From a virus (taxonomy: Duplodnaviria; Heunggongvirae; Uroviricota; Caudoviricetes): 16,450 nt of DNA. The stretch lies in IMG/VR virus record IMGVR_UViG_2537561618_000007; one strand, given 5' to 3'. Below the pieces are notes generated by a model. That model saw nothing but the letters and a program-made list of their open reading frames with translations. It was not told the origin of the DNA and searched no databases. Numbering within the stretch: position 1 is the first letter of the stretch; each line of letters opens with the position of its first letter. Shown here one piece after another: positions 2,174 to 3,298 of this stretch. Made by a program: the position numbers and the translations under genes.

Positions 2174-2365
2174 CCGGCATCTGTTTTGATGCTTGAAAAA
2201 CAACGTAACGGCGAAGGTTGGGAAGGTGGTGTTCCGTTGTTCCTTGACGAGCAATCGCACCAGTTCCTGCAACTTGAATCAGGATCGCCATATAGCTACA
2301 TCGCCAATATGCCGAAATCGGAATATGACGAGGCGTGGCGACAGGAAAACGTGACGGAGTATTAA
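2174..2365 (+). pseudogene. Probable 3' remnant of a DnaB-family helicase gene truncated by IS911
   Basis: Frame open from the IS911 end to a TAA at 2363..2365. Peptide ...SVLMLEKQRNGEGWEGGVPLF... carries the KQRNG motif also present in the intact helicase of this window (ITKQRNGSLG). Confidence 0.4.
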
Positions 2366-2443
2366 ATGACCATCTACATCACTGAGCTAATAGCAGGCCT
2401 GCTGGTAATCGCAGGCCTTTTTATTTGGGGGAGAGGGAAGTGA
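2366..2443 (+). CDS. 25-aa hydrophobic peptide (MTIYITELIAGLLVIAGLFIWGRGK), putative small membrane protein
   Basis: ATG immediately after the upstream stop. One predicted transmembrane helix with a basic C-terminus. Its TGA (2441..2443) overlaps the GTG start (2440) of the next ORF. Confidence 0.3.
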   Translation: MTIYITELIAGLLVIAGLFIWGRGK

Positions 2444-2718
2444 ACGATAGCTACCGACAGTTTGAAAACTGGTGGTCAAAAGACAAAAGCCAGTTCACAG
2501 GAGACGATGAATTAAAAGAGTTTGCCTGGGTGATATGGCAGGCATCGCGAGCAGCTATTGAACTGGATATCGACTGGCCCGAATCGAATGACGACTTTTG
2601 GAAAGATGGTGAAGAAGGTGCTTATGCGATGGGGCATGAGGATGGGAAGGACAAAACGGTAATTGCAGTAATGAAAGCTATCAGAGCCGCTGGAATTAAA
2701 GAGAAGAATTTTCGATGA
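2440..2718 (+). CDS. Hypothetical acidic protein (about 92 aa) of the nin region
   Basis: GTG start at 2440 preceded by GGGAGAGGGAAG. Stop overlaps the ninB start. Family not recognised. Confidence 0.5.
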   Translation: MNDSYRQFENWWSKDKSQFTGDDELKEFAWVIWQASRAAIELDIDWPESNDDFWKDGEEGAYAMGHEDGKDKTVIAVMKAIRAAGIKEKNFR

Positions 2719-3125
2719 AGCAAACAATCTTCCTCCGAACTAAGCAACAACAGCAAGCCGCAATAAATGCCATCCTCTCAACTCCTCTCGATAAAGACAA
2801 GCCAGTCACCATCCGCATTACTGACTACAAGCGAAATCTTGACCAGAACGCAAAATTTCACGCGATGCTGGCGGATATCGCTCGTCAGGTTCAATGGTGC
2901 GGCAAATGGTTAAAACCAGAACAATGGAAGGTTTTGTTGATCAGCGGTCATGCAGTGGCAACAAAACAGGAAGCTGATGTTTTGCCCGGCCTTGAAGGAG
3001 AATGCGTCAACATTCGCGAAAGCAGCGCGCAGATGAGCGTGAAGCGCATGGCAAGTCTGATCGAGTACACAACAGCCTGGGCTATTGGTCAGGGTGTCAG
3101 ATTTACCGACAGGAGGTATGAATGA
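2715..3125 (+). CDS. ninB: NinB-like recombination protein
   Basis: 136 aa. The segment [33 protein letters not shown] resembles the recalled lambda NinB core. Sits immediately upstream of ninE. Confidence 0.7.
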
Positions 3126-3298
3126 GGCGACATCGACGAAGTTTCACCGACATCATCTGCGAAAACTGCAAATACCTTCCAACGAAACGCTCCAGAAATA
3201 AACGCAAGCCAATCCCAAAAGAATCTGACGTAAAAACCTTCAACTACACGACTCACCTGTGGGATATCCGGTGGCTAAGACATCGTGCGAGGAAATGA
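3122..3298 (+). CDS. ninE: NinE
   Basis: 58-aa product [58 protein letters not shown] matches recalled lambda NinE. ATG overlaps the ninB stop. Absent from the ORF track because it is under 60 aa. Confidence 0.75.

Follow-up and report, generated by a model that had tools for sequence, protein, structure and literature searches.

The 16 450 nt stretch of DNA analysed here (the window) is best read as a decayed, cryptic prophage of Shigella flexneri built from pieces of three lambda-like phages, held together at one joint by an IS911 element and at the other by a crossover within a shared toxin–antitoxin cassette, a reading to which we give a probability of about 0.8. The pieces are fragment C (291–925), with the end of a DUF1367 gene, ybcO and the 5′ portion of a Q-type gene; fragment A (2174 to about 3850), with the end of a toprim gene, a phiTE_015-like ORF, ninB, ninE, an antitoxin gene and the 3′ portion of a toxin gene; and fragment B (about 3857–11887), with the 5′ portion of the toxin gene, Rha, O, DnaC, DnaB, ninH, Q, tRNAs and lysis genes. 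The unusual order of the genes is real, and Pfam matches and ORF coordinates place all of the features where the initial annotation had put them: the helicase gene end, an unknown ORF, ninB and ninE lie upstream of the toxin–antitoxin, Rha and O–DnaC–DnaB genes, and ninH and Q follow the helicase gene. The nin genes match Pfam far above the curated cut-offs (NinB 189.5 bits, NinE 139.4, YbcO 147.3 and NinH 91.3). The same annotation suggested that two prophage fragments had been joined, and our comparisons bear out the joining but not the number, which is three. The proposed alignment against related prophages located the breakpoints and found A-type and B-type prophages as separate, conventionally ordered elements in Escherichia coli, with both types present in each of three strains (RMDEC465, FDAARGOS_944 and VL40). 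The related chromosomes CP026788.1, CP033510.1, CP044155.1 and CP055138.1 are listed as S. flexneri (PMC9455713), as is LR213452.1 (PMC9376355).

Fragment A begins with the last 63 codons and the stop of a Toprim primase-helicase gene (2174–2365, plus strand), an in-frame 3′ gene end that stops at 2363–2365 and contains the sequence LEKQRNGEG. All 63 residues are identical to the C-termini of Toprim primase-helicases in 18 phage records (tblastn, E=1e-37), including those of Sf101 (gp45), phi24B (P), Min27, mEp043 and Stx2a_F403. The helicase homology first noted for this segment is therefore sound, but the segment is not a relative of the helicase encoded from 6860: when the two were compared, as had been recommended, the alignment to the DnaB protein of 6860–8251 had an E-value of 0.10, with 30 % identity over 44 aa in an alignment at the KQRNG motif, and the possibility that the remnant is a duplicate of the window's own DnaB gene was rejected on these values. 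Pfam found no match in the 68-aa translation of the remnant. Sf101 gp45 has Toprim_2 at residues 209–296 and AAA_25 at 357–507, together with a sub-threshold match to DnaB_C at 355–594 (23.8 bits, against a cut-off of 27), and the remnant thus corresponds to the end part of a DnaB-like helicase domain. Since it keeps only residues 564–626 of gp45, and both the Toprim domain and the NTPase/helicase core are absent, it is the relic of a gene and does not represent a functional Toprim primase-helicase of the T7 gp4-like architecture.

The remnant is followed, on the plus strand, by an ORF in the ninA position (2425–2718), by ninB (2715–3125; PF05772, E=2.5e-56) and by ninE (3122–3298; PF05322, E=3.3e-41). 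Homologues of the ORF in E. coli genomes bear the annotation phiTE_015 family protein, and the 92-aa product of related loci is listed under PF26207; a Pfam scan of the 97- and 92-aa versions gave nothing at E≤0.01. The exact NinB protein is present in 4074 blocks of the collection. Here ninB and ninE are located upstream of O–DnaC–DnaB, rather than after the replication genes and before the Q gene of a single phage; their native place is downstream of a toprim helicase gene. E. coli FDAARGOS_944 matches 2171–3302 at 97.7 % DNA identity; there an intact toprim gene of 968 aa ends in this segment and has the same ORF, ninB and ninE behind it. In Sf101, too, a nin region comes after the toprim helicase gene. 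In RMDEC465 the ninE to toxin–antitoxin segment, within a normal prophage running from cI to Q, is 97.5 % identical to 3200–3995.

Fragment B, all of it on the plus strand to the right of the cassette, carries a replication module of the phiP27-like (Eru7) type, with the order Rha, O-like, DnaC-like, DnaB. The ash/Rha antirepressor gene (3998–4849, with the Rha domain in 4415–4849) aligns by tblastn in a single frame with Rha proteins from A8, C5 and Stx1_14040 (66–75 % identity). The alignment contains one stop, an in-frame TAG at 4337–4339 that inactivates the gene; E. coli O121 has CAG at this codon, as do the related loci L030, L032, L033 and L035. Next are a 77-aa ORF (4846–5079), conserved in position in phiP27-like prophages, and an intact O-like initiator gene (5060–5974), whose homologue is annotated as phage replication protein O or as LvrA C-terminal domain-related protein; a look-up of the exact protein from the GTG start gave no record, and gene callers have probably used another start. 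The genes for a DnaC-like helicase loader (5976–6863; PF01695, E=1.6e-15) and a DnaB-type replicative helicase (6860–8251; PF03796, E=3e-72) follow, the exact DnaB protein being present in 5932 blocks of the collection, and then an 85-aa ORF (8248–8505) that comes after DnaB in all of the phiP27-like relatives. ninH (8597–8800; PF06322, E=3.6e-26) is contiguous with DnaB in the E. coli O121 prophage, and antiterminator Q (8757–9173; PF06530, E=5.8e-54) precedes four tRNA genes (9373–9683; CAT, Arg-TCT, Thr-TGT and Gly-TCC by ARAGORN), a cluster also found in the annotations of E. coli O121 and RMDEC465. Holin, a 209-aa ORF, lysozyme and Rz (9976–11887) were assigned from Pfam families.

The whole of 4005–9200 is a single block of 99.8 % identity in E. 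coli O121 strain 201805972, in a prophage located by mlrA that has int, cI, cro and Rha on its left. As this prophage has a normal cI–cro left arm, ninH and Q belong to the right-hand phage. From 9200 to 11887 the window is colinear at 98.3 % with the RMDEC465 prophage. Across 3290–8600, Stx1 phages match 85 % of the sequence at 89.2 % identity, phiP27 matches at 93.1 % over 61 % and Stx2_14040 at 86.4 %. Neither cI nor cro is found within the window, and fragment A stands in the place directly downstream of cI/cro.

Fragments A and B meet in a 0.7 kb cassette (3312–3995) on which, on the minus strand, an HTH_3 (HigA-like) antitoxin gene (3340–3648; PF01381, E=3.4e-11) and an intact 109-aa ORF for a RelE/Gp49-type toxin (3638–3967; PF05973, E=4.7e-25) are adjacent and overlap by 11 nt. 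From their sequences they are predicted to be a type II toxin–antitoxin pair with a RelE/ParE-Gp49 toxin and an HTH antitoxin, and the RefSeq names match type II families in E. coli. The map position of the cassette differs between the two phage types: it comes after the replication genes in the A type and before them in the B type. Copies in a nin region are present in VL40, phage POCJ13 and loci L026 and L027, and copies upstream of Rha–O–DnaC–DnaB in E. coli A8, C5 and EC11, where they are contiguous with 3312–4857 at 84–87 %. In each 50-nt bin the antitoxin gene has 100 % identity with the RMDEC465 and VL40 copies that lie in nin context. Against the A-type cassette of RMDEC465 there are 2 mismatches in 3300–3856 and 17 in 3857–3995 (Fisher p=7e-11), so that identity falls abruptly from 99.6 % to 88 % at 3857, within the cassette; against the B-type cassette of EC11 there are 98 mismatches in 3312–3856 and 11 in 3857–3995, and B-type cassettes in general have about 92 % identity over the latter interval (11–12 mismatches). 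The toxin gene is probably a chimera of A and B, and the similarity switch puts the best estimate of the crossover interval at 3834–3856. Since A-like sequence gives way to B-like sequence inside or at the edge of a cassette common to both types, recombination through the cassette most likely placed the nin genes of A upstream of the replication genes of B. The sequence of the joint is identical in 11 related loci. A reciprocal recombination product was looked for and was not found.

Fragment C comprises the 3′ end of a DUF1367/irsA-type nin gene (291–523), ybcO (524–814; PF07102, E=1.3e-43) and the first 115 nt of a DUF1133 Q-type antiterminator gene (811–925), which matches positions 1–39 of the 176 in the PF06576 profile before it is cut by IS911; all three are on the plus strand. 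Identity over the segment 291–925 is 96.8 % with phage vB_EcoS-666R9 and 89.8 % with phage Rac, in which the genes are annotated irsA or hypothetical, ybcO and q, and the homologue of 811–925 in phage records is annotated as antitermination protein Q. The ybcO gene had earlier been singled out as an extra nin-type segment, which is correct: it belongs to the third fragment and is flanked by IS600 on one side and IS911 on the other.

The joint of C to A is formed by an IS911 element of the IS3 family (926–2173, plus strand) of about 1.25 kb, which has ends TGAAGTGGCACAC... and ...GTTGACCACTTCA, terminal inverted repeats TGAAGTGG.../...CCACTTCA, and orfA (HTH_Tnp_1) and orfB (rve), as is characteristic of the family; copies with identical ends are annotated as IS911 in E. 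coli O121. The toprim gene is cut exactly at position 2174, the first base past the element. The bases flanking the element are GTG and CCG, with no target duplication, and because these flanks are unlike, the copy in the window is a rearrangement joint and not a simple insertion; in locus L014 IS911 sits elsewhere in the toprim gene as a simple insertion, with GGAG duplicated on its two sides. The truncation of the toprim gene is a scar of IS911 and not the recombination joint. The missing 3′ part of the Q-type gene adjoins the right end of IS911 in five loci (L011, L012, L017, L020 and L028), where it begins with the same GTG, and L028 corresponds to the window plus 4.2 kb located between two inverted copies of IS911. 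Homologous recombination between IS911 copies was considered as the source of the C-to-A joint and rejected, as the copies in L028 are inverted and the toprim flank is at the opposite end of the element. We note that the same flanking nucleotides touch opposite ends of IS911 in different strains.

At the left edge of the window is an IS600 end (1–290, cut by the window edge); positions 1–290/291 are 99–100 % identical to IS600 ends in loci L011–L034, 1–108 is repeated at 13217–13324, and E. coli FDAARGOS_944 and VL40 carry the annotation IS600-family transposase on the counterpart of 1–290. The prophage remnant is closed on the right by part of an IS600, an IS3-family element and an inverted part of an IS600 (12269–15691), with an inverted repeat (I1) of 1056 nt that is 100 % complementary. 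The element at 13326–14635, which we take to be IS629-like, has plasmid matches that carry no annotated feature there. All of the related loci seen have lost their initiator and immunity genes, on the left of toprim, to IS600.

Other accounts of the gene order can be weighed against these comparisons. It is unlikely, though worth serious consideration, that A and B were joined at the right-hand cassette edge (3996–4004), a recurrent module boundary, by recombination that was illegitimate or relied on very short homology, leaving a cassette that is A-derived throughout, with a divergent 5′ end and no crossover in the toxin gene. The end of A-type similarity at 3995 and the start of high-identity B-type similarity at 4001–4005 would fit such a joint, as would the findings that 3857–3995 is not close to any sampled cassette and that no complete E. 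coli genome spans the cassette edge (3845–4420) at more than 89 %, as an exact B parent would. However, A-type identity drops well within the cassette, it is the cassettes in B context that are nearer in 3857–3995, and the nin-context cassette of VL40 is followed by an ash-like leader homologous to 4005–4257, so that homology was available on both sides. We regard it as highly improbable that the order is an assembly artefact produced by IS repeats. IS911 is a 1.25 kb repeat, and the junction of its right end with the toprim gene is found in no other of the 35 loci that were fetched and rests on one assembly; exact-match scans with both joints gave no matches among species-representative genomes, a result of little weight, since S. 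flexneri genomes are presumably placed under E. coli in that taxonomy. The A-to-B joint, in contrast, lies in unique sequence and recurs in 11 other related loci, and collapse of the inverted IS911 pair of L028 would not give a right-end/toprim junction, as the toprim flank there touches the left end.

The initial annotation had also raised the insertion of a replication module into a nin region, in which a Rha–O–DnaC–DnaB cassette would have entered by a double crossover and ninB/ninE and ninH/Q would be the two halves of the nin region of one phage. The order does read nin, replication, nin, and A-type prophages carry ninH and Q further downstream, but we consider this very unlikely and the insertion is not needed: the O121 block takes in the 85-aa ORF, ninH and Q along with the replication genes, under an ordinary cI–cro–Rha left arm; colinearity with RMDEC465 runs on to Rz; and A-type prophages have a different Q (624 nt) and, between ninE and holin, give no megablast match of at least 100 nt to the window-colinear locus L034. 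We hold it to be just as unlikely that some phage type has this arrangement natively, with two replication systems in tandem. Locus L034 does retain a full-length toprim gene in tandem with O–DnaC–DnaB, and the joint is common to many genomes; yet not one of 50 697 phage records or 5426 complete E. coli genomes covers at least 80 % of 2174–9200, the initiator and immunity genes have been lost to IS600 as described above, and each half also exists as a single-module prophage.

In the history that we favour, a crossover between two phages was followed by erosion by insertion sequences. The source of fragment A would be a Toprim primase-helicase phage with the order O-like, toprim helicase, phiTE_015-like ORF, ninB, ninE, toxin–antitoxin cassette, antirepressors, Q, and that of fragment B a phiP27-like phage with the order cI, cro, Rha, DUF4222, toxin–antitoxin cassette, Rha, O, DnaC, DnaB, 85-aa ORF, ninH, Q, lysis. 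Both types have the same RelE/HTH cassette with an ash/Rha leader after it, and one crossover in the toxin gene, which we infer to have been homologous, would have joined the left part of A to the right part of B, leaving the helicase and proximal nin genes of A upstream of the complete replication module of B. The partners may both have been resident prophages, or one of them may have been an incoming phage. IS600 would then have removed all that lay left of the toprim gene, and in this strain an IS911-associated deletion would have left only the last 192 nt of that gene and fused them to the 5′ stub of the Q-type gene of a third prophage, the source of fragment C and its ybcO. A full-length 968-aa toprim gene is present at the equivalent position in L034 and L007, in L034 as an uninterrupted ORF in a locus colinear with 2171–12744 at 99.86 %, and the truncation by IS911 would thus be later than the formation of the hybrid. 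The S. flexneri genome JANXIZ010000001.1 retains the gene in full. A change of CAG to TAG would have killed the Rha gene. The element is probably inert now, with no repressor, early promoter region or intact left arm in the window.

Recombination between phages and prophages at shared sequences, giving mosaic lambdoid prophages, is described by De Paepe et al. 2014 (PMC3945230) and Martinsohn et al. 2008 (PMC2327257). The present case is like those described there in that modules are joined at a shared, partly diverged stretch and the parents are co-resident as prophages in related strains, and differs from them in that the stretch is non-syntenic and the product has two replication modules in series instead of an exchanged one. 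The remnant in fragment A shares its identical C-terminus with the Toprim primase-helicase module of Sf101, phi24B and Stx2a_F403, the last being the Eru5 type strain (PMC8951638), although of 626 codons (968 with the intein) the window retains no more than 63, and it has lost the upstream initiator along with the Toprim domain and NTPase core. Stx2_14040 is the type strain of Eru7 (PMC8951638), and the early region of this phiP27-like group (phiP27, Stx1_14040 and ASU11) has the same order of Rha, 77-aa ORF, O, DnaC, DnaB and 85-aa ORF as the window, at 89–93 % DNA identity; the window differs in being without the cI/cro part and in having ninH and a PF06530 Q, as in the E. coli O121 prophage, and not the phiP27-type Q.

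The window is a case of ordinary prophage decay, and the events that it reflects, mosaic formation among lambdoid phages through shared sequence and later erosion by IS elements, are of an already known kind. The chromosomes of S. flexneri are marked by IS-driven decay and rearrangement of prophages, from which the present element differs in nothing of substance: IS600, IS911 and the presumed IS629-like element cut genes without target duplications, and their positions vary between close strains. A seemingly illegal gene order is in this way explained without anything new. We offer only as a speculation, and a doubtful one, that the toxin–antitoxin genes and antirepressor leader form a portable patch of homology, placed differently on the maps of different lambdoid phages, through which recombination once gave rise to a viable hybrid phage with two unrelated replication systems in tandem, a Toprim primase-helicase and O/DnaC/DnaB; this phage would have lysogenized an ancestor of S. 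flexneri by way of the lambda attachment site before it decayed. The differences in IS911 junctions between strains are possible lineage markers in S. flexneri. The presence of a moron-type toxin–antitoxin cassette at non-syntenic positions in two phage types makes it a possible crossover site at which two replication modules may be stacked, and offers a concrete example of cargo cassettes as drivers of a module shuffling that appears non-homologous.

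The genes named in the initial annotation were all recovered by ORF listing and Pfam scans; no insertion sequence is named in its account of this region. The first 290 nt of the window belong to an IS600 cut by the window edge (1–290), followed by ybcO (524–814) and IS911 (926–2173), so that position 2174 is the first base past IS911. From here run the in-frame 3′ end of a gene encoding LEKQRNGEG (2174–2365), an ORF with no family given (2425–2718), ninB (2715–3125), ninE (3122–3298) and, on the minus strand, a toxin–antitoxin (TA) pair of an HTH antitoxin (3340–3648) and a Gp49/RelE-type toxin (3638–3967). 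Further right are a Rha-domain ORF ending at 4849, an O-like gene (5060–5974), a DnaC-like loader (5976–6863), dnaB (6860–8251), ninH (8597–8800), Q (8757–9173), four tRNA genes (CAT, Arg-TCT, Thr-TGT and Gly-TCC; 9373–9683) between Q and the holin, and lysis genes.

The 63 residues encoded at 2174–2365 are 100 % identical to the C-terminus of Toprim-domain primase-helicases (tblastn E-value, 1e-37) of phages Sf101, phi24B, Min27, mEp043, Stx2a_F403 and others. Sf101 gp45 (626 aa) has Pfam matches to Toprim_2 (209–296), AAA_25 (357–507) and, below threshold, DnaB_C (355–594), and what the remnant (residues 564–626) preserves of this bifunctional protein is thus the tail of its DnaB-like helicase domain. 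The comparison with the helicase at 6860–8251 that the initial annotation had proposed gives an E-value of only 0.10, at the KQRNG motif; the remnant comes from a different helicase, and its being a duplicate of the window's own DnaB is ruled out. In some hosts this primase-helicase gene (toprim) carries a LAGLIDADG/Hint intein (positions 6745–9651 of related locus L034 and 4286–7192 of L007), giving 968 aa versus 626 aa in Sf101.

The stretch from 2174 to about 3850 (fragment A) has native counterparts. In E. coli FDAARGOS_944 toprim is intact (968 aa, with the LAGLIDADG intein), and the ORF, ninB and ninE come after it as in the window (97.7 % identity to 2171–3302). The order in E. coli RMDEC465 (97.5 % identity to 3200–3995) is cI, cro, cII, initiator, toprim helicase, ninB, methylase, ninE, TA pair, antirepressors, RusA, Q and lysis genes, and the same TA pair, after ninE or within the nin region, is also found in E. 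coli VL40, phage POCJ13 and related loci L026 and L027. These contexts indicate that the toprim remnant, ORF, ninB, ninE and TA pair form a normal lambdoid stretch, with the nin genes after the helicase.

Two readings had been offered for nin genes lying on both sides of the replication genes: prophage fragments joined together, or a replication module inserted into a nin region. The insertion is unnecessary, since E. coli O121 strain 201805972 contains window 4005–9200, ninH and Q included, as one block of 99.8 % identity, in a prophage that adjoins mlrA and in which int, xis, cI, cro, Rha, BRO and ash genes precede the block on its left. The colinearity of the right-hand fragment (B, from about 3857) extends in RMDEC465 through the end of Rz (11887), and phage records of the phiP27 group match 4001–8509 at 89–93 %. 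The O121 block and the phiP27-group matches identify B as an ordinary single-module phage to which ninH and Q belong. The reading of joined fragments is thus supported, A and B being known as separate single-module prophages. In the typing of Stx-phage replication units, the type strains of Eru5 and Eru7 are Stx2a_F403 and Stx2_14040 respectively (PMC8951638); the former has the toprim protein and the latter matches the B module. The stretch 9279–9684, including the tRNA cluster, has a 98.5 % copy beside the Q-type gene of a third prophage in L011–L013, L017, L020 and L028.

The TA cassette (3312–3995, 0.7 kb) occurs in two settings, either in nin regions or between a DUF4222 gene and Rha-O-DnaC-DnaB, as in phiP27-like prophages of E. 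coli A8, C5 and EC11, where window 3312–4857 is contiguous at 84–87 % identity. An ash-like leader homologous to 4005–4257 comes after the nin-context cassette in VL40 too, and the two phage types therefore share up to ~0.95 kb at non-syntenic positions. The window differs from the A-type cassette of RMDEC465 at 2 positions in 3300–3856 and 17 in 3857–3995 (Fisher test, p=7e-11), and from the B-type cassette of EC11 at 98 in 3312–3856 and 11 in 3857–3995; the O121 prophage matches at 99 % from 4005 on. A joint at the cassette edge (3996–4004) is possible, because no complete E. coli genome spans 3845–4420 at above 89 % and the exact B parent is not among the data. The simplest reading of these mismatch counts is nevertheless that a single homologous crossover occurred at 3834–3856, within the toxin gene, in which case the toxin, still an intact 109-aa ORF, would be an A/B chimera. 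Substrates for such a crossover co-exist in other E. coli, since prophages of the A type and of the B type are both present, at separate loci, in each of RMDEC465, FDAARGOS_944 and VL40. The leader of ~250 nt (4005–4257; 7673–9000 in L021), with the read-through '...DSAISGRYTVSAPYKAGAG...', recurs upstream of Ant/Rha genes in nin and early regions and is repeated in tandem, as 'ash family' units, in the O121 prophage. It is usually called as the N-terminus of Rha, the Rha domain beginning only at ~4289, and may have a regulatory role or be prone to recombination.

Searches for exact copies of the DnaB and NinB proteins led to chromosomes of 4.4–4.7 Mb, five of which are S. flexneri by published lists (CP026788.1, CP033510.1, CP044155.1 and CP055138.1, PMC9455713; LR213452.1, PMC9376355). 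The A–B joint is identical in 11 related loci. L034 (JANXIZ010000001.1) has an uninterrupted 968-aa toprim ORF and is then colinear with window 2171–12744 at 99.86 %, so the tandem arrangement is older than the window's truncation. IS600 lies just upstream of toprim in all related loci that have its 5′ end, which implies that the initiator and immunity genes of A were lost.

The truncation is at IS911, whose junctions vary between strains: in L014 it has inserted simply, 318 nt before the toprim stop, and is flanked by a GGAG duplication, in L016 it abuts window position 2698, and in the window, L017 and L028 the junction is 192 nt before the stop. The window's copy is flanked by GTG (left) and CCG (right), without target duplication. 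Left of IS911 a Q-type antiterminator gene (DUF1133) is cut after 115 nt; it belongs to a Rac-like nin region (irsA′, ybcO, q), which is the third prophage fragment (C) in the window. Its lost 3′ part, with the same GTG start, is found next to the right end of another IS911 in L011, L012, L017, L020 and L028. L028 (CP097828.1) corresponds to the window with an extra 4.2 kb, bounded by two inverted IS911 copies, that contains the q 3′ part, tRNAs, a holin stub, IS600 and 66 nt of toprim upstream sequence; the toprim flank adjoins the left end of the second copy there and the right end of the first copy in the window. Homologous recombination between IS911 copies cannot exchange which end adjoins this flank, whereas a putative IS911-mediated adjacent deletion, with its endpoint precisely at the other copy's tip, would give the window's junction. 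This junction is unique among the 35 loci compared and absent from species-representative genomes. At two sites, the toprim remnant (2174) and the O/DnaC boundary (5965), the same flanking nucleotide meets the right end of IS911 in some S. flexneri genomes and, in others, the left end of a copy in inverted orientation (L011–L013, L017, L019, L020 and L028); transposase-mediated events aimed at the tip of a resident copy might swap ends in this way.

Intact ORFs remain for O, DnaC and DnaB. The Rha gene (ash/Rha antirepressor) is split by an in-frame TAG, from CAG, at 4337–4339, common to a sublineage (the window, L014, L016, L017, L028, L029, L031 and L034) and absent from L030, L032, L033, L035 and E. 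coli O121. The window lacks cI, cro and an early promoter region, and we infer that the element cannot be induced. On the right the prophage remnant is closed by a composite of two IS600 parts (12269–13324 and 14636–15691), each of 1056 nt, identical, inverted and 100 % complementary, between which sits a 1.31 kb IS3-family element (13326–14635) that we take to be IS629-like. Both arms keep the same portion of IS600. A chromosomal inversion, through a crossover within the IS element between two inverted IS600::IS copies, would be expected to yield such a structure, and L016, L017 and L028 have it where their sequence covers it. The DNA right of the last IS600 (15692–16450) is not phage-late DNA, whereas L016 and L017, otherwise the closest genomes, have terminase genes after the corresponding IS600, which points to a further rearrangement in the source strain; the last 180–200 nt are also found elsewhere in L015, L018, L030 and L033. 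A 60-aa ORF after Rz (12090–12272), cut by IS600 at 12269 and with no Pfam match, occupies the place of the Rha-like gene that follows the lysis cassette in P22-like phages such as Sf101.

Prophage decay through IS elements is well known in Shigella. Exchange of modules between lambdoid phages and prophages at shared, partly diverged sequence is likewise established (PMC3945230, PMC2327257). The gene order of the window was found in no phage record and no complete E. coli genome: none of 50,697 phage records and 5,426 complete E. coli genomes covers 80 % or more of 2174–9200. Lambdoid mosaicism with IS decay is a known kind of event; only the position of the shared patch is out of the ordinary, after the replication genes in one parent and before them in the other, which leaves the product with two modules in series.
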